Shown piece after piece: positions 10,323 through 49,512 of a DNA stretch of 64,000 nucleotides. The translations under genes were made by a program, and so were the position numbers. Below the pieces are notes generated by a model that saw only the letters and a program-made list of their open reading frames with translations, had not been told where the DNA came from and ran no database searches. The stretch is from a virus. The DNA is taken from positions 1-64,000 of the IMG/VR virus record IMGVR_UViG_3300031963_008656; one strand, given 5' to 3'. Each line of letters starts with the position of its first letter. Within the stretch, counting starts at the first letter, position 1.

Positions 10323-10372
10323 AGCAAAAATTGAATATTTGGTCAACCAAAGTGTGGGCTATAAGTAACAGC

Positions 10373-11446: not shown

Positions 11447-11447
11447 C

Positions 11448-14593: not shown

Positions 14594-14944
14594 AAACTTC
14601 AACCACTTTTCTAGATCGCCGTACATGGCCAACATCACTGCCTGCTGACTGCCAAACAAAACAATTTGCGGATGCTTGCCAATTTTAATGTAGTAAGGGC
14701 AATCTAACTTTTTATCCAAGGTCAGTAAATGTTTGGGTTTAGCAACCAAGTCAGAAGGAGCATCAAATGCGTATGTTTCTAAGTCACAAGTACCAATTGC
14801 TGTATATCCAGCATTGGTCAGTCTGAATCCGCCGCCATCTCTAAAGTTCATCCACCATGACTTGCAGGCTTCGTCGTAGGTCAGTTGGTCTTCCGACGGA
14901 AGACCTGTCAGTATGCGTTCGGTAATCTGTTGTTTAGTTAACAT
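14579..14944 (-). CDS. hypothetical protein
   Basis: 121-aa ORF. Confidence 0.45.
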   Translation of the reverse strand: MLTKQQITERILTGLPSEDQLTYDEACKSWWMNFRDGGGFRLTNAGYTAIGTCDLETYAFDAPSDLVAKPKHLLTLDKKLDCPYYIKIGKHPQIVLFGSQQAVMLAMYGDLEKWLKFLNRT

Positions 14945-15242
14945 TGGGGTACACTTGTTCCCCTTGTGTTAACAGCATGACTGTGAATTTGTCAGTCTTG
15001 AACTGTGCATTTAATTTTTTTGCCAAATTTTTAGCATGCCCTGGATTTGAGAAACTGACTTTTTTGTACTTGGGTCCGGGGTATTGCGTAAGCATGTTAC
15101 CAGTCTTGAGATTGATTGGCTTTTGATCGTAAAAGACCGCCCACACACCTTCAGAGGCCAATACTTGTTCGGTCTTATAGGTTTGTTTCTCAGTGTGCTC
15201 AATTAGAACTAGCGGTTTGGGTCTACTCATATTTTCTCCCAA
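14934..15242 (-). CDS. hypothetical protein
   Basis: 102-aa ORF. Confidence 0.45.
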   Translation of the reverse strand: MGENMSRPKPLVLIEHTEKQTYKTEQVLASEGVWAVFYDQKPINLKTGNMLTQYPGPKYKKVSFSNPGHAKNLAKKLNAQFKTDKFTVMLLTQGEQVYPNVN

Positions 15243-15260
15243 GTTTATTTATCTAATAAA

Positions 15261-15476
15261 CTAGGTGTTTTTGAAGCTTCCGCCTGCGAGTTCTACCGTA
15301 ATCACTTCATTGGAATTTGTAGCAGTGTTTGACCGTAGTTCTTCCAAAGTTACCAATAGCTTGGTAATGTCTGCATGCAGATCCTTAGCGTCACGAAGTG
15401 TCATGATAAAATCACGTTGGTTGCGTGACTCATGCGCCTTGATAGAATCAACAAATCGGTGTATGTGTAAACTCAT
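15261..15476 (-). CDS. hypothetical protein
   Basis: 71-aa ORF. Confidence 0.4.
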   Translation of the reverse strand: MSLHIHRFVDSIKAHESRNQRDFIMTLRDAKDLHADITKLLVTLEELRSNTATNSNEVITVELAGGSFKNT

Positions 15477-15862
15477 TTTTTAAGATATGGGTTGAGATCA
15501 GGTGGCGTCCAGCCTACAGGTTTGAGTACCTTACCATCTTCGCGCTTGCGAACCTTGCCGGTGTCTCGATCAATCTTGGCAAAGTTAGTTTTCATGACTT
15601 CTTTCCAAGCACCTTCGGCATCTGCGCCCATACTGTGTAATGCACCAATAGTAACAACCAAAATGTCAATAAGTGCATCAACAGTTTCGACTTGGTCGTG
15701 TGCTGTGATTGCATCAGCCAATTCGTTGGCTTCTTCTTCAATCAATGTAACATACAAGTTAAATTGATCTTTGTTAAACTCGTTGACACTTTGGTCGCAA
15801 GCCTTCATAAATTTTTCTTGATCTCTAAACGGATTGGTCATAAGTTCTCCCGAAGTTCCCAA
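15473..15862 (-). CDS. mazG: MazG-like nucleotide pyrophosphohydrolase
   Basis: LIEEEANELADAI and DALIDILVV EExxE/D motifs; 129 aa, typical of phage MazG. Confidence 0.65.
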   Translation of the reverse strand: MGTSGELMTNPFRDQEKFMKACDQSVNEFNKDQFNLYVTLIEEEANELADAITAHDQVETVDALIDILVVTIGALHSMGADAEGAWKEVMKTNFAKIDRDTGKVRKREDGKVLKPVGWTPPDLNPYLKK

Positions 15863-16464
15863 AGTGCTACCCAGCCATTAGATTTTGGAAAATAACTGGT
15901 TTGTAATTTATGTGATATTTTTAAATCATATCCCATATTTGACAGTGATTGATTAATAATAAAGAAGGGAGTTTTAAAATTGACCCCACAATGCTTCCAA
16001 GATTTTCGAAGTTGTCTCGACCCGCTGATATTAATATCTTCTGGTAGATAAGCTAACGGATGCTCGGCAGTTACACAATCAAGCATTATGTATTTTGGTG
16101 TATTATAATTTACAAATAGTTCCAACAGATGCAATGAACTATGATGATGATACAACACACCAAAACAAATTACAACATCAAATGGTTTAGCATCTCTCAT
16201 AAGCCAAACATCATCAACCACAACTTTGTCTACTCCAGGAATATCTTCTAATGTAGATTGGTGAACTATATTCCCTTCAATGCATTCTAAGTAACATGGT
16301 GCATGTTTTGCAATTAATTTAGTGTGTTTTCCAACATGCGGCCCTACTTCAAGTACTCGAGCATTAGCACATACCTTCAAATAGTTTTCATCTATAAAAT
16401 TATAATATTCAGTCTCATTACCAGTAACAGTTTTTACATCTTCTTTAAAGTCATAAGGATGCAT
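15838..16464 (-). CDS. putative class I SAM-dependent methyltransferase
   Basis: VLEVGPHVGKHT resembles a glycine-rich motif I. Weak. Confidence 0.4.
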   Translation of the reverse strand: MHPYDFKEDVKTVTGNETEYYNFIDENYLKVCANARVLEVGPHVGKHTKLIAKHAPCYLECIEGNIVHQSTLEDIPGVDKVVVDDVWLMRDAKPFDVVICFGVLYHHHSSLHLLELFVNYNTPKYIMLDCVTAEHPLAYLPEDINISGSRQLRKSWKHCGVNFKTPFFIINQSLSNMGYDLKISHKLQTSYFPKSNGWVALWELRENL

Positions 16465-16894: not shown

Positions 16895-17925
16895 TTTAAC
16901 ACTCCTTGATATGTTTGATTCAGCCAGCGACCAATTGGTTCGGCTTGGTCACTCAGCTTGGTAAGCTCATACTTGCCACAGAACTTGAGAAAGTGTGCGC
17001 CCACCATCCCTATGTCTTTGTTACTGACTTGTTCACCAATCACAGCATCCACAGTATCTTTTACTTCTTGTGGTTGTGCAGTAAGGTCAATTAGTGTGAC
17101 ATTGCGTTCGTAGTCTTCGAGCACCTTGTGTTCTTTTTCTTCGTGGTCGGTCCAACGTTGCAACATGAGATTGTTCCAATTGTAGCCTTTTTTGTTGCGA
17201 TCTTCAAATGCTTCTGTAATGCCTACACGATTCTTTGTGCCTTTTACTGGTGCACCAGGGTATGCTGAGAACACATTGTCGCCGGGATCACCGCGCACAC
17301 ATTTCAAGAACAGCACCCATTTCTGATAGTCAGTTGGGGCCACAAAGCTCCGGTCGGCTTTGCCTACTTTGATCTTTGAATTGCTTTCGATTGTGAAACT
17401 CAATTTGTTGCCTTTGGCATCAGTTACGCCATCAATACTGAACAGGTGGTCGTTTATGCCATTGTACAATTGCACATTTGGTGCAACCAACTGAACGAAG
17501 TCTGAATCACTGCTGACAATAATATGTTCATCTTGGGGGTGTAGTGCAATCCAGCGGCCTATGATATCGTCCGCTTCTGCTGTTGCGCAACGAATCACGC
17601 TACAATTTGTTTTCTCAGACAAGTATTTAGTCAGCTCATCATAGGTTTCCCAAAACAACTTGTCCTCTTCTGCTTCAGTTTCACTCATGGCACCACGGGC
17701 CACAGCACGATTAGCTTTGTAGGGCTTGTAGTGATCTTTACGCCAGCTACGCCCTTCTAGTGCAAAAACCACATGGTCTACACCAAAACGCCTAGCTACT
17801 TTATTTGCACTCATCATGGTCAAGTGCAGTGCAAAGCCTAATTTAGTCCATGTGTCGCTGGCCCTGTGTGCTGAATGGCGGGCACGGAAAAACATGTTAG
17901 CAGTATCAATCAGTAGATATTTCAT
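16891..17925 (-). CDS. 5'-3' exonuclease / flap endonuclease (T4 RNase H / FEN-like, PIN fold)
   Basis: N-terminal MKYLLIDTANMFFRARH and acidic clusters (DSDF, GDPGDN). Confidence 0.7.
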   Translation of the reverse strand: MKYLLIDTANMFFRARHSAHRASDTWTKLGFALHLTMMSANKVARRFGVDHVVFALEGRSWRKDHYKPYKANRAVARGAMSETEAEEDKLFWETYDELTKYLSEKTNCSVIRCATAEADDIIGRWIALHPQDEHIIVSSDSDFVQLVAPNVQLYNGINDHLFSIDGVTDAKGNKLSFTIESNSKIKVGKADRSFVAPTDYQKWVLFLKCVRGDPGDNVFSAYPGAPVKGTKNRVGITEAFEDRNKKGYNWNNLMLQRWTDHEEKEHKVLEDYERNVTLIDLTAQPQEVKDTVDAVIGEQVSNKDIGMVGAHFLKFCGKYELTKLSDQAEPIGRWLNQTYQGVLK

Positions 17926-18634
17926 TAGGGCGGTCCAGAAGTTTGTGTTCCTTCAAGTATTGTAACACATATTCCGACCAAAATCTATGACCATCGGCTC
18001 CAAAGTGATAACTTTTGGGATTCACATGCTCAAATCCGTTGTTTTTTAGTATGGCATTCCAACTGTGGTCTCTTGAATATGGCTCAATGTAATGCCCTTG
18101 CCAATCTCTTAGATTAAATAAATCACTAAATGTACTGTTGCCACTGTAGAATAAATGTCGTACATTTAGATCTTTCAACCGACAATGCAGGTGCCATATT
18201 TTGTTATGCCATTCATCTGTTTTTTGAGTCCAGTTGACATCCAAAATGTACTGACGATACCTATCTTCAAGCTCTGGTGGTACCATGTCCACACCACTGG
18301 CGTTTACTTGATAGCATCGGCCTTCATACTCCCATTCTTCTCGTTCCCAAGTGGTCCATTGGATTACCATCACAGTGTCATACAAACGGCTATAGTTCTC
18401 ATGAATCCACTTGTTAGTGGTACGCAGTATGCGGTCATTGCTGGCTGCTGACTCAGCATCACAGTAAAATTCAGTGTTGAGCATTCGGCTCAATTGCTTG
18501 CCCCAGCTGGCTTCCAAGTTGATTGGATGAGGTCTACGGTCAATGCCATATCTACCATCATCCACAGCAAAGCAATCAGGCACCACTGCTTCGGCAGCCG
18601 CTGTATGGCTGCATCCATTTACATACAAGATCAT
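17906..18634 (-). CDS. GCS(H/F)(T/S) N-terminal-motif paralog 1 (SGNH-like fold with a Cys in the nucleophile position?)
   Basis: MILYVNGCSHTAA... N-terminus, similar to 20528 and 51474. Confidence 0.45.
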   Translation of the reverse strand: MILYVNGCSHTAAAEAVVPDCFAVDDGRYGIDRRPHPINLEASWGKQLSRMLNTEFYCDAESAASNDRILRTTNKWIHENYSRLYDTVMVIQWTTWEREEWEYEGRCYQVNASGVDMVPPELEDRYRQYILDVNWTQKTDEWHNKIWHLHCRLKDLNVRHLFYSGNSTFSDLFNLRDWQGHYIEPYSRDHSWNAILKNNGFEHVNPKSYHFGADGHRFWSEYVLQYLKEHKLLDRPNEISTD

Positions 18635-19107
18635 TTTTGTAGCAGTACTTTTTCGGTCTCTGCGGCAACCACACGCTTGCGCAGGCTACTGGATGAGAAT
18701 GAGTGATCTCGGCCGTTGAATACTAGTTCAATCCCGCGGTCATAGCATTCGTCGCGACCGGTAAAGTCTTTGTGTTCGTATTCTACTCCCAGTACTCGAA
18801 CATCTAATGGCAGAATTAGTAGAAGGTCACGTAGATCTTGTTCGGTTTGGTACACAACAACTTCATCAACGTAACGGCATGCAGCCAGCTGTATCTGTCT
18901 CTCCACAATACTTTGTATCGGACGATTCTTAGTCTCAGGCCTATCGATAGTTGGGTCCGTTTGGAGCCCACAGATGAGGTAGTCACAGTGATTTTTTGCT
19001 TCAGAAAGCATGGCAATGTGGCCTGCGTGGAGCATGTCAAAGGTTGAGAAAGTGATGCCAATTTTTTTGCCTTCTGCTTTGAGTTGTTTGATGTGATTGA
19101 ATATCAT
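18631..19107 (-). CDS. cytidylyl/adenylyltransferase (HxGH nucleotidyltransferase; TagD / RfaE-domain-II-like)
   Basis: GITFSTFDMLHAGHIAML matches G.FD.LH.GH. Start moved to Met41. Confidence 0.6.
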   Translation of the reverse strand: MIFNHIKQLKAEGKKIGITFSTFDMLHAGHIAMLSEAKNHCDYLICGLQTDPTIDRPETKNRPIQSIVERQIQLAACRYVDEVVVYQTEQDLRDLLLILPLDVRVLGVEYEHKDFTGRDECYDRGIELVFNGRDHSFSSSSLRKRVVAAETEKVLLQK

Positions 19108-19505
19108 GATACCTCGCTCCTGCCATCGCCAAGATCTCGCTTTTGAACATACATGCCGGAGTTCTTGATGGCTTGTTCTTGTTCCCATGTTTCCATCACA
19201 ACATGGCGGCATACATTTTGAAACCAACGGTCAACAATGTCCCCATCAGTGTCTGTAGGTTTCATCATATAGCCAGCCTTTACCAGTCGAGCCACAAAGA
19301 TTTCATTCCAATCCAACTCAAATGCACCTTGATGCAGATTGTCAGGATCCACATCCATACTGAGCACAGCCACGTAAGGTTCTCCCTTTTCAGTAGCAAG
19401 TTGTTTTTCAGTTTTAGCTGGTGGTTCGGCAACTCTAGGCTTAGTGACTTTTTCTACCACAGGTGGTGGTTTCTTTTGAGATTTTTTAAACCAATCAAAC
19501 ATCAA
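19104..19505 (-). CDS. hypothetical protein
   Basis: 133-aa ORF. Confidence 0.45.
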   Translation of the reverse strand: MMFDWFKKSQKKPPPVVEKVTKPRVAEPPAKTEKQLATEKGEPYVAVLSMDVDPDNLHQGAFELDWNEIFVARLVKAGYMMKPTDTDGDIVDRWFQNVCRHVVMETWEQEQAIKNSGMYVQKRDLGDGRSEVS

Positions 19506-19677
19506 TCCTACCCCATTTAATTTTTAACCAAATACGTTCCATACTGTATTGCAAGAATGCTAACACAATATGGATTGCAACTGCATCACCCAGTCCGGTC
19601 CACAATGCAGTAATCAGCAATGCAGCAATTCGATAAGTTAGAGTTCGGATCCATGTTCTTGTATGAGTTTCTGACAT
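19495..19677 (-). CDS. small membrane protein
   Basis: Hydrophobic stretch IAALLITALWTGLGDAVAIHIVLAFL. Start moved to the internal Met after the QueE stop. Confidence 0.35.
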   Translation of the reverse strand: MSETHTRTWIRTLTYRIAALLITALWTGLGDAVAIHIVLAFLQYSMERIWLKIKWGRIDV

Positions 19678-19678
19678 G

Positions 19679-20524
19679 TTATTTGCCCCATCCATTACCC
19701 CAGAGGTCCACATGCAATCGTGGGCTGTACCAATAACCTCGTTTGAGTGCTTCGTCGGCAACGTGAATTCTATTGCCATCATACACACTCACAACACCGC
19801 CAACAGGCATCACAAAAACTGGTCCGCTAAATCCACGGGTTCGATAGTCGTCAACTACTAGATCAAGCTCTTTGAAATCATCAATGTGACCAACAACAAA
19901 CTTCAAATAGGTAACACCGTGAGTTTCGTAATCCCAAATAATGTCAGGTTTGATAGCATCTTCATACTTTTCACCACTGACACTAAGTTTAGGACTTACT
20001 GAGAATGTGATCTCGCCAAACCATTCAGACAGATACTGTTTGAATTCTCTTGTGAGTTCTTGAGTACCATTGGTTTCAAATGTAATGTGTCGCAGTCCAC
20101 GTTCGTGCAACAGATTCAACAGTTCAGGATATGCACGTTGCCAACCTAGCAATGGCTCGCCACCTGTGATCACAAGATGCACTGAATTGCCGTTTGGTTG
20201 TTGCCAGTGGCCATTGGGCAACAGCGCAGCCATTTTGTCAACTAACTCTTGTGCTGTGTATGTGGGACTTAGATGTTTAAAGTCAGGATGCCAACTTGCA
20301 TACGAATCGCATCCTGTATTAACCAACGGGAGCTCTTCAAAAGTCTTGTAGAGATGAACGCTCTTTGCGACGTCATCTGCCTCAGTGCTCTTATCACCGG
20401 GTTGGCATCCAAATCCCGAACACGTAAAGTTGCAACCGAAGGTTCGTAAGAAGATAGAAGGAACTCCAATATAGCGTCCTTCGCCCTGAGCAGAATAAAA
20501 TAGTTCACTTACTTTTAATTTCAT
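19679..20524 (-). CDS. queE: 7-carboxy-7-deazaguanine synthase (radical SAM)
   Basis: FYSAQGEGRYIGVPSIFLRTFGCNFTCSGFGC aligns to E. coli QueE F.TLQGEG..GVP.IF.R..GC...C..C. Confidence 0.8.
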   Translation of the reverse strand: MKLKVSELFYSAQGEGRYIGVPSIFLRTFGCNFTCSGFGCQPGDKSTEADDVAKSVHLYKTFEELPLVNTGCDSYASWHPDFKHLSPTYTAQELVDKMAALLPNGHWQQPNGNSVHLVITGGEPLLGWQRAYPELLNLLHERGLRHITFETNGTQELTREFKQYLSEWFGEITFSVSPKLSVSGEKYEDAIKPDIIWDYETHGVTYLKFVVGHIDDFKELDLVVDDYRTRGFSGPVFVMPVGGVVSVYDGNRIHVADEALKRGYWYSPRLHVDLWGNGWGK

Positions 20525-20527
20525 TGT

Positions 20528-21238
20528 TTATAACCTTGTTACCTTTGACATTCCCGACTTGCGGGGATTCTTATTTAGATTGATACTTTCATCATGCATT
20601 TTAACACGAGTAGATTGTTTTGTCACCCAACCCGGTAATACTGCATCTAAATAGGCCAAATGTTCTTCGGGGCTGGGATGTGGGTCACCGTTTCTATTAG
20701 GATATCCAGTGTTTTTAAATACAGTTTTGTCATACCCTGGTTTGATACTTAAAACCACATTTTCGTACAATCGCATGACATCTCTGTGTTTGCTAACATT
20801 GTCGGACGGAAATGGCATGGCCATTAATTCTACCATACTCAAAAATTCCCATTTTAGATTGTGTCGAGATTCCAGTAGAGTTTTAACTGCTTTGATGCAT
20901 GCCAGATCTCTAATTAGGAATCCTCTTTCATCCATGTGTGTTTTAAGGTATTCTTTGTTAAACACATTGGTTGCGAAGTGTGCATTTCCGGGTGTGTGCC
21001 ATCGACCGTCAACATATCGATCCTCTCGATCTAAACTGGTCCAGCATACAACAACAGTATCTCCGTCACCAAAACAATGCCTTTGATCAGCCTCCATGAC
21101 TGAATTGAAAATATATTGATTTCCTCCTCCTGCCTGGCCCCAATTTTCAAAGTGATCAAATTCTGGAGCAAGACAATCTGCCCAGGTGCTCCAGCGATAG
21201 TTTGTAAAACTACAACCAAACGTAAACAGTCGGCGCAT
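20528..21238 (-). CDS. GCS(F)(T) N-terminal-motif paralog 2
   Basis: MRRLFTFGCSFTNY... Confidence 0.45.
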   Translation of the reverse strand: MRRLFTFGCSFTNYRWSTWADCLAPEFDHFENWGQAGGGNQYIFNSVMEADQRHCFGDGDTVVVCWTSLDREDRYVDGRWHTPGNAHFATNVFNKEYLKTHMDERGFLIRDLACIKAVKTLLESRHNLKWEFLSMVELMAMPFPSDNVSKHRDVMRLYENVVLSIKPGYDKTVFKNTGYPNRNGDPHPSPEEHLAYLDAVLPGWVTKQSTRVKMHDESINLNKNPRKSGMSKVTRL

Positions 21239-21240
21239 TG

Positions 21241-23223
21241 TTAGGCTGCTAGTTTTGCCCTGGCGCCAGCATCTCCGCGTTTGGCAACGTCTACCTGCGT
21301 GTCAGCGTTCAAGCATTCAACTGTGGCTTTTCCAAAATTTCTACGTCTAGCAAAATAAAATAGTTCTAAGAAACGTGGAAAGCTCATAGTTTTATCTTCT
21401 GGAAACTCCAGTTGATATTCTCTTGGCGCATGTACAAGTTTGTGATCAAAGCTGAGATATTCCCAGATGTTGTAGTCTAATTCTAAAACCTCAGGATAAG
21501 TGTTCATAGCATCGTAAGCCACATGGTATCTGCGTTGGAATCGCATGATGTTCTCCAACAACACAGGCGGTAAATCATAACGACTCATGAACTTTTCTAA
21601 CATGTCAAAGATATTGTGATTTTGTTTTTCCACATGCATGTTCAACACAGTTCTGTGTATGAGGTTCCATCCGTGAATTTCAATGCCAATCTTGGGATGA
21701 TTGATTCGGCCATTGGTCATCCAACTGCGATAGTACTCGCGAACTTCTTCTTGTTCGCGGTGGATCCATTCATGACCTTGCACGTATTCAAACAGGTCTG
21801 CATAAAACTCGCTGTAGGGCACACCCTGATACTTGAACACCAATCGACTCAACAGTGTGCTGATGCCATTGATGTGGAAGGTATTGATAAACCATGAAAA
21901 AATATGTGCTTCCATCATGACATCAAACGGCATGTCTTTGGTGCCAGTGATAATGTCAATGGCTTCTTCAATGTGTTCGTTGGAGTATGATCCAGAAAAA
22001 TAGTCTGTTACACTTTGATTGGTAATCTTAAACAACTTCTTCTGCAACAGGTTCATTTCGGCATTTTCCAACAACTGAGCCTGGAACACCGTGAGACCAG
22101 TATGATTGCCCATTTCAAACAAAGTCCAAAAGTTTTTCTTCCAAGACTCAAGACTTTCACCAGGTAGGCCCAAGATAAGTTCAGTGTAGGTTGGAATGTT
22201 ACGTTGCTCACACAGCTCAAATACTTCGTTGAGCTTGTTCATTTCCATGTTTTTGCGACGAATGTTTTCCAATACATCCAAGTCAAGACTTTGCACACTC
22301 AGCGTTAGACCTTGATTGAAGCCTCGGGCATCCAGCAATTTTTTAACAATGTCCACAACTTCTTTCTTTTGATTCTTGGCCCAGGCCACAGAGAAAGTTC
22401 TCGGAGAACCATACTTTTCTTGACATTCAATAATCTTGTCTGCAATCAAACTGTCACGTTCGGCAAACATGCCAAAGTTAGCGTCAGTAATTGATATGAA
22501 ATCAAAGTTGTGCTTAGCCATCCATTCCAACTCATGGTACACACGTTCTAAACCAAACTTCTTGACCTTGTTGTATGTCAAGCTACCCCAGTCACAAAAC
22601 GTACAAGCAAATGGGCAACCACGAGAAGTTTCTAGTGTGCCTTGCCACATGATGTCAGGATTTGCAGCCATTAGGTCATCAAATACACCTGCCAGATACG
22701 GGCTAGGAATATCTTCAAGAGTTTCAATGCGCTTGGCATCACCTGTGCTTATAGCTTCGCCGTCTCGATTGATCAGCAAGCCAGGTATTGACTCCCAGTC
22801 TTTGCTGTCATATGCCAGCATGAGATTTCTAAATGTGATTTCACCTTCGTAGCAAATCACAATGTCCATGAATGGTTCTTTGCGAAACAGATCTTTGTCT
22901 GTGATTGCAGGTTCGGGACCGCCAAATATGGTCAACACGCCAGGATTGATCTCCTTGAGCCTGCGAGCCAATGCATAGTTGAAATTGTGATTCCACACAT
23001 AAGTGCTAAAAGTCACAACATCATTTTCAGCCAGTCGTTGTGCAATTGGCTCTATGTTGTCCCGGCGCCACACCCATTCAGTCACTTGCCATGCATCACG
23101 TATGCTGGGTTCCGCAACTGCATAACTCCAAATCACACCTGCTGAGTATGGCAGGTAGTAGGCATTGAGTTCTTTAGGACCTTGTTGGAAGTTTGGTTGT
23201 ACCCAGGCAATTTTTCTTTTCAT
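21241..23223 (-). CDS. B12-binding radical SAM enzyme (class B; putative C-methyltransferase or related)
   Basis: 660 aa. The N-terminal about 150 aa is B12-binding-like. Radical SAM cluster ETSRGCPFACTFCDW. Confidence 0.7.
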   Translation of the reverse strand: MKRKIAWVQPNFQQGPKELNAYYLPYSAGVIWSYAVAEPSIRDAWQVTEWVWRRDNIEPIAQRLAENDVVTFSTYVWNHNFNYALARRLKEINPGVLTIFGGPEPAITDKDLFRKEPFMDIVICYEGEITFRNLMLAYDSKDWESIPGLLINRDGEAISTGDAKRIETLEDIPSPYLAGVFDDLMAANPDIMWQGTLETSRGCPFACTFCDWGSLTYNKVKKFGLERVYHELEWMAKHNFDFISITDANFGMFAERDSLIADKIIECQEKYGSPRTFSVAWAKNQKKEVVDIVKKLLDARGFNQGLTLSVQSLDLDVLENIRRKNMEMNKLNEVFELCEQRNIPTYTELILGLPGESLESWKKNFWTLFEMGNHTGLTVFQAQLLENAEMNLLQKKLFKITNQSVTDYFSGSYSNEHIEEAIDIITGTKDMPFDVMMEAHIFSWFINTFHINGISTLLSRLVFKYQGVPYSEFYADLFEYVQGHEWIHREQEEVREYYRSWMTNGRINHPKIGIEIHGWNLIHRTVLNMHVEKQNHNIFDMLEKFMSRYDLPPVLLENIMRFQRRYHVAYDAMNTYPEVLELDYNIWEYLSFDHKLVHAPREYQLEFPEDKTMSFPRFLELFYFARRRNFGKATVECLNADTQVDVAKRGDAGARAKLAA

Positions 23224-24089
23224 GCATTATTTACTTGTTTTTGATCAGTATCTTTTTTTGCAAAATGTGTATGCGGGTTGGCAAATTGAACCATTTGACT
23301 GTTTACATCATTCTGTGCTAGTTTTTCCCAGGGATCTTGACTGCCGTTGAACACGTTGGTAAAGAATGAAAGATCCATACCTAATTCACTGCGCATGTAT
23401 GTGGCCAATTTTGCACAGTCTCGGTGTCGCAGGTCCATTTGCTGAACGCTGTGAAAGTCCAACGGATCATCGGGGCGACCTTCTAGCATGGCACGATTTT
23501 TAAATGTTTCATCGCCGTTGTTGCCAGTCAAGTCGTGGCGATCATGTTCTACCCATACTGGAATTCTTTCCCAAATGTCCAGCATGTATGCCTGTTGACT
23601 CAACCACCCATCTTGTGTGGGATGGGGACTGATGTATCCCAACAGTTCATACCATTTGCGTGGAACTATTGGAAAAATTGAGTAGGGGTGGTCGTTGTGA
23701 GTATGGAATGCCAGCAATCTAAACTTGCCATTGTATTTCAAAATCTCACTGTCCCACCCCTGGGTTTGCATGATGGCATCATCATTCCAAATAACAAACC
23801 AAGGAGCCAGGGCTTTCTCAGCCATCTTGTTGTTGTAGATATGCAATCTGATATATCCCAATGGGTCAAACAACATGGCGGTATAGTGATAACCGTGTGA
23901 GTCTAACCAAGGCTGCAATTCAGTTTGGAAGTACGTTTTGCCTTTGTCATCGTCTTTGTCAAATCCAAACATGATTTGCAAACGATGAGGATTGTCAGCC
24001 AGTTCAAACAAACTGCGAACACTTTTGCCCAACGCTTCTGTACGACCTCGAGTGGCCAACAGTAAAGATATATCAAATTCTTGTGCCAT
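23220..24089 (-). CDS. putative GT-A-fold glycosyltransferase
   Basis: N-terminal DISLLLATRGRTEAL (GT2-like) and WNDD DxD-like motif. Confidence 0.5.
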   Translation of the reverse strand: MAQEFDISLLLATRGRTEALGKSVRSLFELADNPHRLQIMFGFDKDDDKGKTYFQTELQPWLDSHGYHYTAMLFDPLGYIRLHIYNNKMAEKALAPWFVIWNDDAIMQTQGWDSEILKYNGKFRLLAFHTHNDHPYSIFPIVPRKWYELLGYISPHPTQDGWLSQQAYMLDIWERIPVWVEHDRHDLTGNNGDETFKNRAMLEGRPDDPLDFHSVQQMDLRHRDCAKLATYMRSELGMDLSFFTNVFNGSQDPWEKLAQNDVNSQMVQFANPHTHFAKKDTDQKQVNNA

Positions 24090-24112
24090 AAATTCCTACC
24101 AATTTGATGTAA

Positions 24113-24733
24113 TTATGCTTGATTGTCTGCAGCCAGCTTTTTCTGCAAGTGATTCAACAAGAAACCATACGCAGGCAGAATAACCAACAGACTCACAATG
24201 ATCTTACTGATTGAATTGTTGGTTGCAACAATGTGCCAGTTAGCAGCCATGAACTCATTTGCGCCACCAGCAAAGGCAGTAAAGAAGAACACATAGGTAT
24301 CAAAGAATGTGCTCACAATTGAACTCAATGCAGGAGCAATCCACCAAGTGGCGTACTTTTCACGAATGTATTGGAACACGTACACATCAAGCAAGTTGCT
24401 CACAAAGTATGCAACACCCGAGCCAAGACCAATGCGGAAAGCAACTGAGTCAGGAGCACCGCCCAGTTTGACCACTGCCATTGACACAATGATAGCAGGG
24501 ATGAATGCCAATGCAATCACCGCACGACCAGTTTGTTTGCCTAACATTCGCACAGTCAAGTCGGTCAACACAACCACTAGTGGGAATGTGAATGCGGCTG
24601 CTGCCAATGGTGCACCAAACACTGAGAATTTGAATTGCACAATGTAGTTGCTGATAGCAATGATAATGATATGTGCCAGCATGAGCTTGTAGGCCAATGC
24701 ACGGTCAACGCCACTTAAGATTCGATCTAACAT
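24113..24733 (-). CDS. yhhQ: queuosine-precursor transporter (YhhQ/VUT family, DUF165)
   Basis: 206-aa polytopic membrane protein; ...VYFVSNLLDVYVFQYIR... resembles YhhQ. Confidence 0.65.
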   Translation of the reverse strand: MLDRILSGVDRALAYKLMLAHIIIIAISNYIVQFKFSVFGAPLAAAAFTFPLVVVLTDLTVRMLGKQTGRAVIALAFIPAIIVSMAVVKLGGAPDSVAFRIGLGSGVAYFVSNLLDVYVFQYIREKYATWWIAPALSSIVSTFFDTYVFFFTAFAGGANEFMAANWHIVATNNSISKIIVSLLVILPAYGFLLNHLQKKLAADNQA

Positions 24734-24750
24734 GATTTTTCCTTGTTATA

Positions 24751-25257
24751 TTAAACGAATAGATCTTCCATCCACTCGCGATGGCCTTCTCTAAAAGCCA
24801 TATTGCTCTGTGTTTCGCGCACTTCCACACGATAGCACCAGAGACGCTCTGCTTCACCCGGTCCCCACAGGTCCGGAATGTAAACACCGTTCACATACTT
24901 GTACAGCATGTCTGCCAAGCCTTCACACCCTAAGCGTGGCAGGATTGTGAGTTTGGCCATTTTTTTCTCTTGCAAGAGCTTGTATGTCGCCAGCTCTGGA
25001 TCATCTGCAGACACCAGCAAGGTATGATCAAATTGATCTTCTAATGTCTTTTTAAGTTCTTTGAGACCGCCATAGTCAGCGGCCCAGTTACGCACATCCA
25101 GGTTGTCTGTGCCAAAGTAGAACTTCATTGAGAATGAGTAACCGTGAATTAGATTGCAGTGGCTGTCGGCACGCCATTGACGGTATGCGCAGGGAAAAGC
25201 ATCATGATACTCTTTGGTGCTGGTGTACTTGTATTGTACTGGTTGATTTGTTGCCAT
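24751..25257 (-). CDS. queD: 6-carboxy-5,6,7,8-tetrahydropterin synthase
   Basis: CxxxHGH zinc motif (HCNLIHGYSF), about 168 aa. TATAAT and AGGAGG sit immediately upstream. Confidence 0.8.
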   Translation of the reverse strand: MATNQPVQYKYTSTKEYHDAFPCAYRQWRADSHCNLIHGYSFSMKFYFGTDNLDVRNWAADYGGLKELKKTLEDQFDHTLLVSADDPELATYKLLQEKKMAKLTILPRLGCEGLADMLYKYVNGVYIPDLWGPGEAERLWCYRVEVRETQSNMAFREGHREWMEDLFV

Positions 25258-25359
25258 ATTGTCCTCCTATGTATTATAGCATAGGCAGCAGAGTTTGTAT
25301 AGCGGGATGATGCCGGACAGGCCGCTTAGAGAAATACTTATATTAAATATCAACAGAGG

Positions 25360-26016
25360 TTAAGGTTCACGCCAGGTTTCTATTGAAAGAAACTCTTTAG
25401 ACCAAGTTTCTCGATCATATGTGACATCGCCCCATTGGCACGATCCGTGCCATTGGAAACTTTCAAACGCAATTAGATCACCAGGTGACTCCCATTTTAT
25501 GATTTTTCTTACACTGAAATTTCTTGCTTCTTCAGTGTATTGGTCAGAATACGCTGGCAAGATGTTTGGCATATCTGTATATAATGGTTCATTCAAATTG
25601 GCTGGACAACTATAAAATGCAGTACCAGGAGTATGACCGTCTTTCCACCACAAAGGAATTAAAAAAGTAAGACCTTCTTTGAAACCTTTGCTTTTATTTT
25701 CTTTGAGCCAATCGACTCCTCTAATGTCGCTATGTGGCAAAATTGGTGCTGACAAATATCGGATACTGGAATCGTGGATGATAAACTCACCAAAGTCTGT
25801 TTTTAACTGGTTGACTATTTTATGAATAGGACTTCGGGGCAGTTCATAGTGCAACTGACGATCCCAACAACTTGCCCATCCCAGTTTAGATTTTGGATTA
25901 GGATAAGGTCCAGCTGAGTCTAACAATGAATCATTTATTTTTTCATAGTATGATTTTATATCATTGACAACGCTCAATGAAATATACTTTTTTTTGTATA
26001 TAATTTTTTTTTGCAT
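25360..26016 (-). CDS. hypothetical protein
   Basis: 218-aa ORF; a possible His/Asp metal site, not assigned. Confidence 0.45.
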   Translation of the reverse strand: MQKKIIYKKKYISLSVVNDIKSYYEKINDSLLDSAGPYPNPKSKLGWASCWDRQLHYELPRSPIHKIVNQLKTDFGEFIIHDSSIRYLSAPILPHSDIRGVDWLKENKSKGFKEGLTFLIPLWWKDGHTPGTAFYSCPANLNEPLYTDMPNILPAYSDQYTEEARNFSVRKIIKWESPGDLIAFESFQWHGSCQWGDVTYDRETWSKEFLSIETWREP

Positions 26017-26021
26017 GTTAA

Positions 26022-26426
26022 TTATGGTTTTTGGTAACTACCTGTTTTGTAGTTAGCTTGTCCAATAATAACCCCACGTACTCCGCCCACTGGGTCAGCA
26101 CAGTCACCTGCTCGGCGTGGAATCAAATGCACATGTGGATACATCACAGTTTGACCTGCTTCACGACCCATGTTGATGCCGATATTAAATGCATCACATT
26201 CGCCATTGACAACCATTCTGCGACCATGCAGCATGGCTGATTCAAAACAGTCCATGATTACCGCATCGTTATTGTACTGTGGCACAAACAACAAATGACC
26301 GGGTGTGACAGGATAACGATCACGAAACACAGCCACGTGATAGTCTGACAGTTCTGTCACACGGTCGTCCCAGGGTGCAATATCTTGTTGATATGCAATT
26401 TCTAAATCAGTCATAATAGTTTTCAT
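26022..26426 (-). CDS. HIT-like (histidine-triad-related) nucleotide-binding protein
   Basis: YPVTPGHLLFVP and the YPHVHLIPR core partially match a HIT fold and motif; the third His is absent. Confidence 0.4.
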   Translation of the reverse strand: MKTIMTDLEIAYQQDIAPWDDRVTELSDYHVAVFRDRYPVTPGHLLFVPQYNNDAVIMDCFESAMLHGRRMVVNGECDAFNIGINMGREAGQTVMYPHVHLIPRRAGDCADPVGGVRGVIIGQANYKTGSYQKP

Positions 26427-26869
26427 TCAATTGGTAACGGAAAAACTCTTCCAGTCAAGCTGAATCTAGTATGTCCAGATTCTATGCCTTCTACACTATG
26501 ATATCTGCTGGCATGCAATATGTGCCATTGATGTGTTGGAATAACAAAACTGTGTGTTATGGTAGTTTTATCATCTTCAAAAAAATTGGTCCTAACATTG
26601 CTTCCACCAGCGTCAATCAAATACGTTAATTTTACTTCAGTACCAACATCTTTGTGTGCAATGATATCGTTGTTCATAAACTGAAATCCCCAATGCATAG
26701 TGTCACAAATATTTTGCTTGCACCATGTATCTATCTGTTGGGTAAAATCGTCTGACCACTTGTAAGCACCGTTAAGATAGTTGGCCTTAAACGAGTATTG
26801 ATCAAAATTGTAATTGAGGCTGTCTAAAATCTCAACTGGAATTTTAGGCAGATTCAGATATCTAATCAC
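26423..26869 (-). CDS. hypothetical protein (GTG start in the ORF track)
   Basis: 148-aa ORF. Confidence 0.45.
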   Translation of the reverse strand: MIRYLNLPKIPVEILDSLNYNFDQYSFKANYLNGAYKWSDDFTQQIDTWCKQNICDTMHWGFQFMNNDIIAHKDVGTEVKLTYLIDAGGSNVRTNFFEDDKTTITHSFVIPTHQWHILHASRYHSVEGIESGHTRFSLTGRVFPLPIE

Positions 26870-27039
26870 TCTTGATCCAAGGCCTCAATAGCATTGTCAT
26901 ATCCACGTTGGAAGTCGTCAGCATCTGCTTCGGCATCTTCCAGTTTCAAATAGGGGTTGAGGCATTTTTCGCCGGCCTTGGCCTGCTCATAGCCTTGTTG
27001 ATAAGGCGCTTGTTCATAAGGAGTGATTTTCTTAGCCAT
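26866..27039 (-). CDS. small ORF with a ribosome-modulation-factor (Rmf)-like motif, 57 aa, below the track threshold
   Basis: Hand translation: MAKKITPYEQAPYQQGYEQAKAGEKCLNPYLKLEDAEADADDFQRGYDNAIEALDQE. Compare E. coli Rmf ...QRGYQAGIAGRSKEMCPY... It exactly fills the gap with TAATG and GTGA overlaps. Confidence 0.35.
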   Translation of the reverse strand: MAKKITPYEQAPYQQGYEQAKAGEKCLNPYLKLEDAEADADDFQRGYDNAIEALDQE

Positions 27040-27487: not shown

Positions 27488-27898
27488 TCATACGCAAACT
27501 TCCTCTTTGAGATATCGTTTGAGTTCTTTGTCATTGGGTTCTACAGTATAGTTCTTCTTGAAAAAAATTTCATAACTATCACTGCCGTATTTGCCAATGC
27601 CGTACAAATCGGTAGCATCATCACCATTCCAAGTCATGTAGTCTTGACTCATTTTTTTCAATCTGGTGTATCTTACATTAGCCATACCTAATGGTGCAAT
27701 AATGCTTTTTACAAAATCTTCATCGGCTGCGATCAATGCTTCCGGCGTTGGGAACCAGTATAAAAATTCTGGCAAGGTTGTTTTTACAGATTTGCGGCCT
27801 GTTTGATTCAACATGATCACTCCAACCATGTGTTCCCATGAGTTAGAGATTTGTTGTTGAACCATCAGATCATCTCGTAATGCATGAAAAAATATCAT
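27488..27898 (-). CDS. hypothetical protein
   Basis: 136-aa ORF. Confidence 0.45.
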   Translation of the reverse strand: MIFFHALRDDLMVQQQISNSWEHMVGVIMLNQTGRKSVKTTLPEFLYWFPTPEALIAADEDFVKSIIAPLGMANVRYTRLKKMSQDYMTWNGDDATDLYGIGKYGSDSYEIFFKKNYTVEPNDKELKRYLKEEVCV

Positions 27899-28587
27899 CG
27901 TGGTGCAAAGTCCTGTTGTAGTTTGATGTTGTCAAAGAATTCTTTTTTTACACTTTGGTCTGATTTAAACGCACCGTGTAAAACTGTTGTTTGGGTGAGA
28001 CTAGAGTGAGCCATGATACCGCGATTCTCACAACAACCATGGGTAGCTTGTATATAAACTGCAACATCCTTGGACCCGGTCGCGAATTCAATTTCGCGAG
28101 CAATATCCATACATAGCTCTTCTTGGAGAGTGCCTCGACGGGCACACCATTGCGCAATCCTGGTATACTTGGATAGACCAATAAGTTTGGGGCCAGCAAT
28201 GATTCCAATATAAGCCACACCCGTAACAGGCTGGTGATGATGCGAACACATGCTCTTAAGCTCTGAACGCACCACAAGCATACCTTCGTATGCTCCGTCC
28301 GTATCGTTTGGGAAAGCCGTAGCATTAGGGCTCGTCTCATAGCGACCAGCCATAATTTCATTGAAGTACATTTTTGCAAGGCGTTGCGCCGTGCCTTGTG
28401 AGTTAGGATCATTTTCCCTGTCAATTAGTAGTGTATCGAGAACTTGTTCAAATGCTTGAGTGGCCTCCATAATCAAATGTTCACGATCTGACTCAGCAAC
28501 ATAATCACTGATGTTGTCACCAGCCCAGAATCTCTTGCCGTCTGCCTTCATGCGTTCGCGAAGGACTTGTGATAGATTTTTTTCCAA
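27895..28587 (-). CDS. folE: GTP cyclohydrolase I
   Basis: SMCSHHHQPV (compare CEHH) and ATHGCCENRG (compare HMCMxxRG). TTG start in the track. Confidence 0.8.
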   Translation of the reverse strand: MEKNLSQVLRERMKADGKRFWAGDNISDYVAESDREHLIMEATQAFEQVLDTLLIDRENDPNSQGTAQRLAKMYFNEIMAGRYETSPNATAFPNDTDGAYEGMLVVRSELKSMCSHHHQPVTGVAYIGIIAGPKLIGLSKYTRIAQWCARRGTLQEELCMDIAREIEFATGSKDVAVYIQATHGCCENRGIMAHSSLTQTTVLHGAFKSDQSVKKEFFDNIKLQQDFAPR

Positions 28588-28658: not shown

Positions 28659-29326
28659 TAGATTAATTGATTTGTGACCCATCTAATTAACCTATCTGCT
28701 ATAACTTGATGGCCCAGTTGATTGGGATGGCCACCACTACTGCTAAACAATTCATGTCCTCGTTCCATACTGGTAAATTTCACTCCCAGTATGTCAGCAC
28801 AAGTTACCTTGCCATTCTCATACATGTATCTAGTGTCTACTTCAGACCAAAATTTTATCTTTTGCCAGCCAGCAACAAATAGTGCATTTACCCTGGCTTC
28901 TCTGCAAATTCCTTGCACAGTCAAGATAGCAGTGTTCACAGCATAATCGTGTGCGGCATCGCTAGAAAAATACTTGTAATACAATTCGTTTAGATTGTGT
29001 TCTGTGGGATTGGCATTGGGCACAGCCACTCCGTTGGGTTGCAAATGTACCAGCCGATCATGCCAGGTCATGTGACGTTGTTGAGAAGTCAAAAACACCA
29101 ATACAGTGTACCTATTGTCTGGATTTTCTCTTTCAGTGCGGTACTTGTCTAAAAAGCCTTTGAGTTGCAACACTGTGTGAGGAATGCTGGATCCAGGTAC
29201 TGCAACATTATCCACACTGGTCACATTCAAACGGTCACCAATGATCTGGCCAAATGATTTTTCGCCTGGCTCAAGTTCTGCACCATATGCCCAACTGTCT
29301 CCTAAAATAGCAAGTCTATGAATCAT
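28655..29326 (-). CDS. GDSL/SGNH-family hydrolase
   Basis: ILGDSWAYGAE block I with Ser nucleophile. Confidence 0.55.
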   Translation of the reverse strand: MIHRLAILGDSWAYGAELEPGEKSFGQIIGDRLNVTSVDNVAVPGSSIPHTVLQLKGFLDKYRTERENPDNRYTVLVFLTSQQRHMTWHDRLVHLQPNGVAVPNANPTEHNLNELYYKYFSSDAAHDYAVNTAILTVQGICREARVNALFVAGWQKIKFWSEVDTRYMYENGKVTCADILGVKFTSMERGHELFSSSGGHPNQLGHQVIADRLIRWVTNQLIY

Positions 29327-30317: not shown

Positions 30318-30910
30318 TCAACAATCTTGATATTTCTTAGATCAGGATATGGCACATACACAGGTTTAGGATTGTGTTCCTTGACACCTTGTAGCAATGC
30401 CACACCTTGAATGGCATCTTCAATACTGGGCTTGTAGTGATAGCCCACATGAAATGTCTTTTGGTCCTGCCAAGGTGCCACAGTCAAGTCTCTGCCATCA
30501 TAGCGTTGGCGCAATATGGTTTCATATGCTTTTTTATCATCCAACAATATAGCACCACCATGCCCAATAGCCAATGGCTTTGTATGTCCAAAACTCAAAC
30601 ACTGCATGGTGCCTGGCCGATACATATCCTGTTCCAATCTGCGAGCTGAGTCCCAAATTCTAGTGTAAGTGAATTCATACTCGCCTTCCCAATGCTGCCA
30701 GTCAATATCGTGATAGACATAGTGAATGCCTAACTTGTGCATGGTCATAGGAATGCTCAAATAAGTGTAAGGTGTAAACTTACAAGCTCGTACTCGATCA
30801 TATCGCAAGCAAAGTTCAATGGCATGTGTACAGCAATCAGTCATGATTGCATACGGTGCTCCTGTGAACTCTGCTAGTTCTTCTTCAAACTTTTTTATCT
30901 TGTCGAACAT
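30314..30910 (-). CDS. short DegT/DnrJ/EryC1/StrS-like PLP aminotransferase domain protein
   Basis: TDCCTHAIELCLRY and SFGHTKPLAIGHGGAIL (compare SFHxxK...GEGG); only 198 aa. Confidence 0.5.
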   Translation of the reverse strand: MFDKIKKFEEELAEFTGAPYAIMTDCCTHAIELCLRYDRVRACKFTPYTYLSIPMTMHKLGIHYVYHDIDWQHWEGEYEFTYTRIWDSARRLEQDMYRPGTMQCLSFGHTKPLAIGHGGAILLDDKKAYETILRQRYDGRDLTVAPWQDQKTFHVGYHYKPSIEDAIQGVALLQGVKEHNPKPVYVPYPDLRNIKIVE

Positions 30911-31847
30911 ACCAGTTCCATGCGTGTTGAATCATGTCATCTAGCTCATAATGACGCCATGCTCCTGCTATCAAATTAAACTTTTCTGAACTGGCAGTAA
31001 GTACAGGAGGGTCACCGGCTCTACGCTTGCCAACAACAACATTCAATGGTTGTTGTGTTTCATCAAGTGCGGCTTCAATAATGCCGTGATTGCTTGTGCC
31101 CATGCTGGAGCCAAGATTGTAAACGCCCGCAGGGATTTTGTGATATAACGCCAGAACGTGGGCCCGGGCAATATCATCCACATGCACGTAATCACGCACA
31201 CATGTACCATCCTCAGTGGGGAAATCGTTTCCGTTTAACACAAAATCTTTTTGATCCCTTATGCTTTCAAGCACTCTAGCAATAATATGTGTGGCACCAG
31301 GCTCTTGACCATGCCTGCCTTTGGGGTCTGCACCACATGCATTGAAATAGCGAAAACTAACATAGTCAAGACCGTATGCCCGGTGATAGCTTTCCAGCAT
31401 CATGTCAATCATCAGTTTAGATTCGCCATAAGGACTAACAGGTTCGTTGGGATCCACTTCATGTATGGGATTCATGACGGGCTCACCGTATGTGGCTGCT
31501 GAACTTGAAAACACCAATCTACAACGAGGCATGCTTTGTTTAACAATATCCAACAACTTCAATGTTTTGGCCACATTGTTGTTGTAGTATTCTGAAGGGT
31601 TCTGTACTGAAGGCCCCACAAGGCTGGTGCCAGCACAATGAATGATAGCATTGGGTTGCTTTTGTATGATCCAACTCAGTGCTACATCACTTGCAAAGTC
31701 CTGATACAAGAATCCATCGGGCACACCTCTAAGATGTTCAGGAGGCTGTCTGCGATCAATGCCGTATACTTCATGCCCGGCATCTTTCAATGCCAGCATG
31801 GTCTGACCACCAATGTACCCGGCTGATCCAGTTACAATTACAATCAT
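30885..31847 (-). CDS. NAD-dependent sugar epimerase/dehydratase (UDP-glucose 4-epimerase-like)
   Basis: VTGSAGYIG Rossmann motif and YGESK (YxxxK). Confidence 0.75.
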   Translation of the reverse strand: MIVIVTGSAGYIGGQTMLALKDAGHEVYGIDRRQPPEHLRGVPDGFLYQDFASDVALSWIIQKQPNAIIHCAGTSLVGPSVQNPSEYYNNNVAKTLKLLDIVKQSMPRCRLVFSSSAATYGEPVMNPIHEVDPNEPVSPYGESKLMIDMMLESYHRAYGLDYVSFRYFNACGADPKGRHGQEPGATHIIARVLESIRDQKDFVLNGNDFPTEDGTCVRDYVHVDDIARAHVLALYHKIPAGVYNLGSSMGTSNHGIIEAALDETQQPLNVVVGKRRAGDPPVLTASSEKFNLIAGAWRHYELDDMIQHAWNWYVRQDKKV

Positions 31848-48400: not shown

Positions 48401-48422
48401 TAAGTGGGTCTATAAATATTGC

Positions 48423-49469: not shown

Positions 49470-49512
49470 ATAAAGATCTACAACAATTCATGAATCAAAT
49501 TGTCAACTTGTT

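Follow-up and report, generated by a model that had tools for sequence, protein, structure and literature searches.

A predicted TokK/CysS-type cobalamin-dependent radical SAM enzyme in a variable slot of a phage deazaguanine and sugar gene island

What does a cobalamin-binding radical S-adenosylmethionine (SAM) enzyme do among the 7-deazaguanine and sugar genes of a phage? We address this question for an open reading frame (ORF) at positions 21241-23223 of IMG/VR virus record IMGVR_UViG_3300031963_008656. Positions 1 to 64,000 of this record were analyzed (64,000 nucleotides; hereafter, the window). An original prediction, made from the sequence, described the product as a 660-amino-acid (aa) B12-binding radical SAM protein encoded beside queE, a glycosyltransferase gene, and the gene for the transporter YhhQ, and proposed that it tailors a deazapurine or a sugar, possibly by C-methylation, which would give a modification outside the described dPreQ0/dADG/dG+/dCDG series. 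We refer to the protein as rSAM. On balance, we favor a cobalamin-dependent C-methyltransferase that acts on a sugar or on a group borne by a sugar.

The rSAM ORF lies on the minus strand, starts with ATG and ends with TAA. We consider the gene real because it has thousands of metagenomic homologues with at least 70% identity and because an alignment of 121 sequences contains 155 invariant columns. Both predicted domains scored above the Pfam cut-offs: residues 58-134 matched B12-binding (PF02310; 45 bits, cut-off 32.1, E 1.2e-11), and residues 198-362 matched Radical_SAM (PF04055; 41.9 bits, cut-off 29.5, E 1.5e-10). We built an AlphaFold (AF2) model with 121 homologues in the alignment (pLDDT 82.9, pTM 0.83), in which the N-terminal domain superposes on the cobalamin domain of TokK. 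In Foldseek, the model matched TokK with a TM score of 0.81 over 674 columns at 29% identity, covering all three domains, and CysS at full length with TM scores of 0.72-0.76. TsrM and OxsB reached 0.44-0.49. A PDB sequence search gave the same two enzymes, TokK (7kdx, E 6.6e-85, residues 19-484) and CysS (9n1b, E 2.6e-50). The best NCBIfam match was the KedN5 family of methylcobalamin C-methyltransferases (NF033712, E 1.8e-76), although its 257.7 bits lie below the curated cut-off of 700 and cover only residues 13-392. PHROGs held no family for rSAM, for the 236-aa protein encoded next to it, or for most proteins of unknown function in the surrounding island.

The residues on the cofactor side agree with the fold. 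C203, C207, and C210 of the CX3CX2C motif are invariant in 121 of 121 homologues. Two tryptophans are also invariant in the 121 homologues: W77, which aligns with TokK W76 under the corrin, and W212, which aligns with TokK W215. The pair W76/W215, with W76 beneath the corrin, has been reported solely for TokK, ThnK, and CysS (bioRxiv 10.1101/2021.07.10.451909). The same authors called TokK's C-terminal domain distinct to that enzyme, and its counterpart in rSAM is likely the substrate-recognition domain. Arg280 of TokK, which anchors the substrate carboxylate, is replaced by Ser278 in rSAM and therefore implies a different substrate. Judged from sequence and model, rSAM is a predicted class B methylase of the TokK/CysS type in its architecture and cofactor-side residues, with a different substrate. 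Its nearest characterized relatives (TokK, CysS, and the KedN5 family) are all C-methyltransferases, in agreement with the class and chemistry originally proposed. Cobalamin-dependent radical C-methylation, perhaps repeated, is well supported as the likely chemistry.

Class B enzymes are chemically diverse, and rSAM could instead carry out a rearrangement, ring contraction, dehydration, or epimerization of a sugar or nucleotide without methyl transfer, as do OxsB, AprD4, HpnJ, and BchE. Weaker matches of rSAM to HpnJ (E 3.7e-21), BchE, AprD4, and OxsB-like folds are consistent with such a role, as are clusters of rSAM homologues rich in other sugar-modifying radical SAM enzymes. The similarity to TokK and CysS is far stronger, however (TM 0.81 and 0.75 versus 0.49 or less), and the tryptophan pair specific to the methylase group is invariant. 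We consider a non-methylating enzyme very unlikely.

The rSAM gene is part of a run of minus-strand genes in the order GT-A-like glycosyltransferase (GT289), rSAM, DUF6071/SGNH-like protein, and QueE, with YhhQ and QueD just upstream. The three neighbors originally named are all in place, co-oriented and tightly packed; to these we add the 236-aa DUF6071/SGNH-like gene between rSAM and QueE. The GT289 stop codon and the rSAM start codon share an ATGA overlap, and spacers of 2 nt and 3 nt follow rSAM and the 236-aa gene, respectively. Because of this packing, the four genes are almost certainly one co-transcribed set.

We mapped 48 loci by way of rSAM and 80 by way of the 404-aa GT-B glycosyltransferase gene upstream. 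The latter sample is unbiased for rSAM, and 35 of its loci span the slot that separates QueD/GT-A from QueE. None of the 35 has lost QueD, the GT-A-like gene, or QueE; a B12-rSAM occupies the slot in 20 of them and is missing in 15. Where rSAM is missing, QueD, GT-A, and QueE adjoin one another directly, or the slot is filled by a class I SAM methyltransferase of 260 aa (VLEIGCG motif) or by other multi-gene cassettes. The methyltransferase gene (locus L123, 8885-9667) lies next to the GT-A-like gene and has homologues at loci L024, L031, L054, L070, L074, L084, L086-L089, L104, and L126. Because it occurs instead of the B12-rSAM or together with it, we regard the slot as a hot spot for methylation tailoring. 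The rSAM gene is a strain-variable, optional tailoring cassette and no fixed part of 7-deazaguanine synthesis.

The rSAM sequences form three clades. Clade A, the window type, has members that are 68-74% identical and the gene order GT-A, rSAM, SGNH-like, QueE. Clade C is found in the same slot of sister phages, in the order QueD, rSAM, GT-A, methyltransferase, QueE, and has no adjacent SGNH-like gene. It is 52-55% identical to clade A and 58-65% identical to two enzymes on bacterial metagenome-assembled genome (MAG) contigs. Clade B (50-54% identity to A) is from other jumbo-phage contigs, among them contigs of 358-364 kb. Its neighbors there are SPASM/radical SAM genes (four or five), a further B12-rSAM of 750 aa, an epimerase, a carbamoyltransferase, a mini-DegT, and a UDP-Glc/GDP-Man dehydrogenase, and DUF6071-like genes flank it on either side. 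Within 10 kb of the clade B rSAMs, we found no Que gene. A homologue of the 236-aa SGNH-like gene lies directly downstream of them; across clades A and B, no other protein accompanies rSAM as consistently. A 289-aa gene upstream of the clade B rSAMs was rejected as a GT289 orthologue (hhalign 0.1%) and is DUF6071-like instead (68.7%).

The closest cellular homologues are 48-50% identical to the window rSAM. One, from Marinimicrobia (locus L058), is accompanied by a GFO oxidoreductase, GT41, SDR, FkbM, GT1, thiamine pyrophosphate-dependent E1 alpha/beta, DegT, and 4,6-dehydratase genes. Another, on a 505-kb contig from Thiobacillaceae (locus L057), is found with a xylose-isomerase-like gene, GT41, a second rSAM, GT1, and genes for TPR proteins. 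Neither has Que genes nearby. The scan of MAG contigs, which used N-terminal motifs only, returned five loci, three of them phage contigs or too short, and is no measure of bacterial spread.

These contexts bear on the target of the enzyme. We favor a sugar over a deazapurine because clade B and the bacterial enzymes related to clade C are surrounded by sugar genes, with no Que genes nearby, because glycosyltransferase-like and SGNH-like proteins are the constant company of rSAM, and because rSAM is dispensable for the Que backbone (absent in 15 of 35). Of the two targets originally offered, the sugar gains from clade B and the bacterial contexts, and the deazapurine loses from the backbone-bearing relatives without rSAM. 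In the same way, the deazapurine branch of the prediction is weakened by orthologues in clade B and in bacteria, which have no Que genes near them. Consistent co-occurrence of rSAM homologues with Que/DpdA genes was not seen in clade B, in the bacterial homologues, or in those 15 phages.

A different arrangement of the same evidence would have rSAM C-methylate the deazapurine itself, as free 7-carboxy-7-deazaguanine (CDG) or 7-deazaguanine, as a nucleotide, or as a base in DNA. The sites would be C8 or the C7 substituent, and the product a methyl, ethyl, or isopropyl 7-deazaguanine, so far undescribed. The rSAM gene is tightly packed with QueD and QueE on its two sides, two rSAM clades are fixed in this slot, a class I SAM methyltransferase is its alternative occupant, and a candidate TGT-like transglycosylase is encoded 14 kb upstream. 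We found no QueC in the ORFs scanned, and the pathway may therefore end at CDG, as in DpdA3 phages. Methylation of a deazaguanine base also has a precedent in mdPreQ1 (PMC10516641). Against these points, both the nearest homologues from cells and one entire clade from phages are in sugar clusters without a Que gene nearby, 15 of 35 backbone-bearing relatives do without rSAM, and the constant partners of rSAM are not base-handling enzymes. We consider methylation of the deazapurine unlikely.

The substrate could also be a small acyl or alkoxy group on pantetheine, coenzyme A (CoA), or a carrier, which rSAM would extend and the SGNH/DUF6071-like protein would then move, as a branched group, to a sugar or other acceptor. 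TokK and CysS, which rSAM matches in fold over its full length, were both crystallized with pantetheinylated substrates between the N- and C-terminal domains; moreover, clades A and B have an SGNH-like gene immediately after rSAM, and clade B has another ahead of it. This scheme is improbable, however: no small ORF resembling an acyl carrier protein was found near rSAM, nor a phosphopantetheinyl transferase or acyl-CoA ligase, the substrate anchor of TokK is replaced by Ser278, and clade C has no SGNH-like gene beside it.

Several points weigh against a sugar or sugar-borne substrate. We know of no class B radical SAM enzyme of the TokK/CysS subtype that methylates a sugar. The GT-A label for GT289 comes from a weak PHROG match and DxD-type motifs only. 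Clades A and C are independently fixed between QueD and QueE, which is also expected if they act on the Que product. The clade B contexts were viewed for 10 kb on each side only, and Que genes could lie elsewhere in these genomes. The C-terminal domain is the most divergent between clades (32-44% identity versus 50-65% in the other two domains), and substrates may therefore differ between clades and contexts. TokK and CysS themselves act on pantetheine-tethered, non-sugar substrates (bioRxiv 10.1101/2021.07.10.451909).

For C-methylation of a sugar or sugar-borne group, TokK suggests how the reaction would proceed. The reduced [4Fe-4S] cluster on C203/C207/C210 would cleave SAM to a 5'-deoxyadenosyl radical, which would remove a hydrogen from the substrate at an unactivated carbon. 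The resulting substrate radical would accept a methyl group from methylcobalamin, bound base-off in the N-terminal Rossmann domain above W77, and a second SAM would re-methylate cob(I)alamin. Several methyl groups might be added in turn. The substrate would most likely be a sugar, or a group carried by it (for example, O-methyl or acyl), in a nucleotide-sugar or glycan intermediate that the neighboring phage genes produce. Here, rSAM would probably work with the adjacent GT-A-like transferase and the DUF6071/SGNH-like protein, as an esterase or acyltransferase. The enzyme may fairly be expected to depend on cobalamin from the host.

The features discussed here are listed in Table 1. The loci share a strict backbone order: PolB, u334, u240, TGT-like (512 aa), u177, s147, GT-B (404 aa), epimerase/dehydratase, mini-DegT, FolE, (HIT), QueD, GT-A-like (289 aa), the variable slot, QueE, nucleotidyltransferase, DUF6071, and 5'-3' exonuclease.

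Table 1. Coordinates of rSAM, its domains, and genes of the surrounding island in the window
Feature	Coordinates	Strand	Basis
B12-dependent radical SAM enzyme (rSAM), 660 aa	21241..23223	minus	Pfam PF02310 + PF04055; TokK/CysS-type three domains
rSAM N-terminal Rossmann-type cobalamin-binding domain, ~aa 1-190	22654..23223	minus	Pfam match, TokK alignment
rSAM CX3CX2C [4Fe-4S]/SAM motif (C203, C207, C210), then active-site Trp W212	22594..22617	minus	Translation, invariant columns, TokK alignment
rSAM C-terminal, mainly helical domain, ~aa 431-660	21244..21933	minus	Full-length model alignment to TokK
Putative GT-A-type glycosyltransferase (GT289), 289 aa	23220..24089	minus	phrog_14945 glycosyltransferase, E 3.3e-9; DxD-type motifs
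DUF6071-related SGNH/GDSL-like protein, 236 aa	20528..21238	minus	hhalign to window DUF6071 family, 99.7%
QueE-like radical SAM enzyme (7-carboxy-7-deazaguanine synthase)	19679..20524	minus	phrog_2076, E 5.3e-55
YhhQ/Vut_1 queuosine-precursor transporter	24113..24733	minus	Pfam PF02592, E 2e-21; NCBIfam TIGR00697, 102 bits, above cut-off
QueD-like 6-carboxytetrahydropterin synthase	24751..25257	minus	Pfam PTPS, E 5e-16; phrog_2389, E 1e-35
GTP cyclohydrolase I (FolE)	27895..28587	minus	Pfam PF01227, E 2.8e-39
Mini DegT/DnrJ/EryC1-type pyridoxal phosphate enzyme, 198 aa	30314..30910	minus	Pfam PF01041, E 2.4e-16; PDB WbpE and similar
NAD-dependent sugar-nucleotide epimerase/dehydratase	30885..31847	minus	Pfam Epimerase, E 3e-54; GDP_Man_Dehyd, E 7e-41
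GT-B (GT4/GT1-like) glycosyltransferase, 404 aa	31844..33058	minus	AF2 model + Foldseek
s147 small protein, 120-147 aa	34009..34452	minus	Travels with GT-B
Candidate DNA transglycosylase (TGT/DpdA-like), 512 aa	37027..38565	minus	Motifs, hhalign
Cytidylyl/adenylyltransferase-like nucleotidyltransferase (HldE domain II-like), backbone	18631..19227	minus	Pfam PF01467, E 2.9e-12; phrog_7878, E 2e-32; TIGR02199, E 1.7e-24
DUF6071 protein, second SGNH-like paralogue, backbone	17906..18634	minus	Pfam PF19547, 29.2 bits (cut-off 27)

Among the direct neighbors, GT289 has FDxDD and WNDDA motifs that are invariant among 19 homologues; it had no Pfam match, and PDB sequence and profile searches gave nothing useful. 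The 236-aa protein, also without a Pfam match, belongs to a DUF6071/SGNH-like superfamily with four paralogues in the window. Its residues G8, S10, and H187 are invariant and N40 is near-invariant, and a PDB profile search gave a marginal match to the GDSL protein 4rw0 (E 0.007). QueE shares 36-46% identity with its counterparts in Vibrio phage nt-1, KVP40, and cyanophage BUCT-ZZ01; it matched the NCBIfam QueE models with E 1e-10 to 3e-14, every one below its cut-off. YhhQ is present in only some relatives. The mini-DegT is of half length, keeps the SFGHTK lysine motif, and is conserved around the rSAMs of all three clades, with homologues in clade B clusters at 37-44% identity.

The 512-aa protein carries the motifs DSGGFQ (100-105), LDIP (145-148), and FDCA (296-299), which we take to be the catalytic signature of TGT. 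It had no Pfam match, a PDB sequence and profile search gave nothing useful, and a phmmer search with DpdA of phage 9g against all window ORFs gave no match. By hhalign, it aligned to the TGT pair of Xanthomonas phage BUDD and BUCT-ZZ01 with 40% probability (E 2.9e-4), and it is 36% identical to gp168 of the Pseudomonas jumbo phage PA5oct and 30% identical to a protein of Phosso. From these sequence matches, we propose it as a candidate for a new DpdA-like subfamily, which public records of phages annotate only as hypothetical. The DNA of PA5oct is resistant to restriction at sites that contain G, and this phage has been listed with a deazaguanine system (PMC12191111, PMC7824862).

The AF2 model of the 404-aa GT-B (pLDDT 73.7) matched BshA (5d01, E 6.5e-10), many GT4 enzymes, and many viral GT1 proteins in Foldseek, whereas PDB searches by sequence and profile had yielded nothing useful. 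The protein is 85-96% conserved across the best 120 of thousands of metagenomic homologues. GT-B and s147 are found beside Que genes in three more lineages: BUCT-ZZ01, where GT-B is 64% identical to that of the window, BUDD, where GT-B directly adjoins an annotated queuine tRNA-ribosyltransferase, and PA5oct (gp166-168). Outside the window, GT-B and the 120-147-aa protein are combined with Que and TGT-like genes at loci L052 (BUCT-ZZ01, 14400-15929), L061 (6950-9864), and L060 (5382-8527). This joint travel of GT-B and s147 with Que/TGT-like genes in four unrelated phage lineages suggests a glycosyl step tied to deazaguanine systems that is so far undescribed. BGluT was among the fold matches, and the combination of FolE, PTPS, and GT-B recalls its pterin-glycoside pathway; this is less likely here because the island has a clear QueE homologue.

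Two further observations concern the deazaguanine genes. In BUCT-ZZ01 (L052, 9855-10316) and some relatives (L044, 11961-12473), a purine phosphoribosyltransferase lies beside QueE, QueD, and FolE, without QueC. This hints at a nucleotide-level route to deazapurines from CDG and phosphoribosyl pyrophosphate, as in the tubercidin pathway. A fragment-sized HhH-GPD protein of the DNA glycosylase superfamily (136 aa, 27488-27898, minus strand) adjoins FolE in the window but is found at other positions in some relatives. A link to the sensing or protection of modified bases is conceivable.

Where might the methylated sugar end up? The island could build a glycosylated 7-deazaguanine in phage DNA. 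The TGT-like enzyme would insert a CDG-derived base, GT-B and GT-A would attach sugars supplied by the epimerase, mini-DegT, and nucleotidyltransferase, and rSAM would add at least one radical C-methyl, a decoration that varies between strains and would evade modification-dependent nucleases. This fits with the two glycosyltransferases and nucleotide-sugar genes interleaved with FolE, QueD, QueE, and the TGT-like gene, with the place of the island inside the replication module, with the recurrence of GT-B, s147, and the TGT-like gene as a trio with Que genes in four lineages, and with the hypervariable tailoring slot. On the other side, more glycan and rSAM genes lie outside the island, at 10331-14593 and 48366-53640 (the latter including a SPASM rSAM and two DUF6492 genes). 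The bacterial relatives are accompanied by GT41/TPR genes, which are typical of protein glycosylation. Sugar clusters of jumbo phages have also been proposed to remodel host surface polysaccharide (PMC7824862). We consider attachment to DNA rather unlikely.

The second group of sugar and rSAM genes (47486-53640) comprises a ferritin-like protein, the SPASM radical SAM protein (48366-49469), the two DUF6492 proteins, a u333 paralogue, and a 271-aa SGNH/DUF6071-like protein. The u333 family has four paralogues in the window (29316-30317, 50370-51497, 13634-14593, and 10331-11446) and multiple copies in clade B clusters as well. None of 26 members had a Pfam match. R137, E207, E224, K225, and G252 are invariant, in an ET...TEK-like motif that may recall fucosyltransferases; the u333 paralogues are possibly novel glycosyltransferases. 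Between two u333-family genes, on the plus strand, lies an asparagine synthase-like glutamine amidotransferase gene (11448-12989). Amidation of a uronic acid is one possible role of its product; a speculative one, with QueC absent, is amidation of the carboxylate of CDG.

The window belongs to a freshwater jumbo myophage that is uncultured. The family B DNA polymerase encoded there (PolB, 41019-43679) shares 51% identity with the enzyme of Sinorhizobium phage Phosso, 47% with that of Agrobacterium phage Atu_ph07, and 42-45% with those of other jumbo myophages of ~350 kb, and close rSAM homologues are on contigs of up to 340-350 kb. A search of INPHARED for near-identical DNA with positions 18000-27000 gave no match, and tblastn of INPHARED with rSAM gave only two weak matches (28-30% identity), to unannotated fecal phage contigs. 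Host-like auxiliary genes on the minus strand encode a Gram-negative porin (Porin_4, 1670-2560), a fatty acid desaturase (4549-5313), and an SPFH/Band 7 protein (5770-6564). One rSAM homologue is labeled Oxalobacteraceae in nr. Because of this label and the porin type, there are hints that the host is a freshwater betaproteobacterium, probably one of the Burkholderiales.

To our knowledge, B12 radical SAM methylases of the TokK/CysS type have so far been described only in a small number of antibiotic pathways of bacteria. Our literature search found no paper that places a B12-rSAM in a cluster for DNA modification or glycans in a phage. The kind of enzyme is known already, and M6 gp53 is one precedent for a radical SAM enzyme in phage DNA hypermodification. 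The novelty lies in a large branch dominated by phages, in its deployment as a cassette that can be exchanged, in the SGNH-like partner, and in the combined deazaguanine and sugar island. If the product is on DNA, phage hypermodification would extend to glycosylated, radical-methylated purines, and phage fitness would be tied to host vitamin B12; no purine hypermodification with a sugar, and no DNA modification with a B12-dependent radical SAM step, would have preceded it. If the product is instead a glycan of the virion or host surface, it would still be made by a new enzymatic route to C-methylated sugars. Genomes with and without rSAM form a natural set for finding the substrate.

Among known systems, rSAM is most similar to the sequential C6 methylases of carbapenems, TokK and ThnK (PDB 7kdx, 7kdy), with which it shares the Rossmann B12 domain, the radical SAM barrel, the large C-terminal domain, the CX3CX2C motif, the Trp below the corrin, and the active-site Trp. 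Unlike these enzymes, rSAM is encoded by a phage, with sugar, Que, and SGNH-like genes as neighbors and no beta-lactam pathway genes nearby. It also departs from TokK at Ser278, and the sequence alignment ends at residue 484, within the C-terminal domain. CysS (PDB 9n1b-d), a sequential methylase of the cystobactamid alkoxy group, is the second-best match in sequence and fold. In contrast to the CysS and KedN5 systems, the rSAM region has no nonribosomal peptide synthetase or aromatic-acid pathway. CysS extends an existing O-methyl group, and a methyltransferase beside such an enzyme would therefore fit. The window encodes an FkbM-type methyltransferase (34979-35956), and another is encoded directly upstream of the Marinimicrobia homologue. 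Enzymes of the GenK/GenD1/Fom3 type perform B12-dependent radical C-methylation on an aminoglycoside sugar or a CMP-linked small molecule. They are a functional parallel to the role proposed for rSAM, and the island also has a nucleotidyltransferase gene, but they are not its closest relatives: Fom3/PhpK-family and AprD4 models matched with E 1e-7 to 1e-12, and GenK was not among the matches.

The island shares FolE, QueD, and QueE with the 7-deazaguanine systems of phages (DpdA, FolE/QueD/QueE/QueC, DpdL, DpdM, and DpdN), has a candidate DpdA in its TGT-motif protein, resembles DpdA3 phages in its pathway without QueC, and is located between the DNA polymerase and the 5'-3' exonuclease. The systems described so far have no B12-rSAM, glycosyltransferases, or nucleotide-sugar enzymes; the island differs further in a DpdA candidate missed by Pfam and by the 9g DpdA search, and in an rSAM that is dispensable for the backbone. 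The radical SAM isomerase gp53 of phage M6 sculpts a thymidine hypermodification after replication and is encoded in combinatorially variable gene clusters (PMC8989533). It is a relative of spore photoproduct lyase that isomerizes an amino-acid adduct on thymidine and, unlike rSAM, is not B12-dependent; like the role that rSAM would have on DNA, it places a phage radical SAM enzyme in DNA hypermodification.

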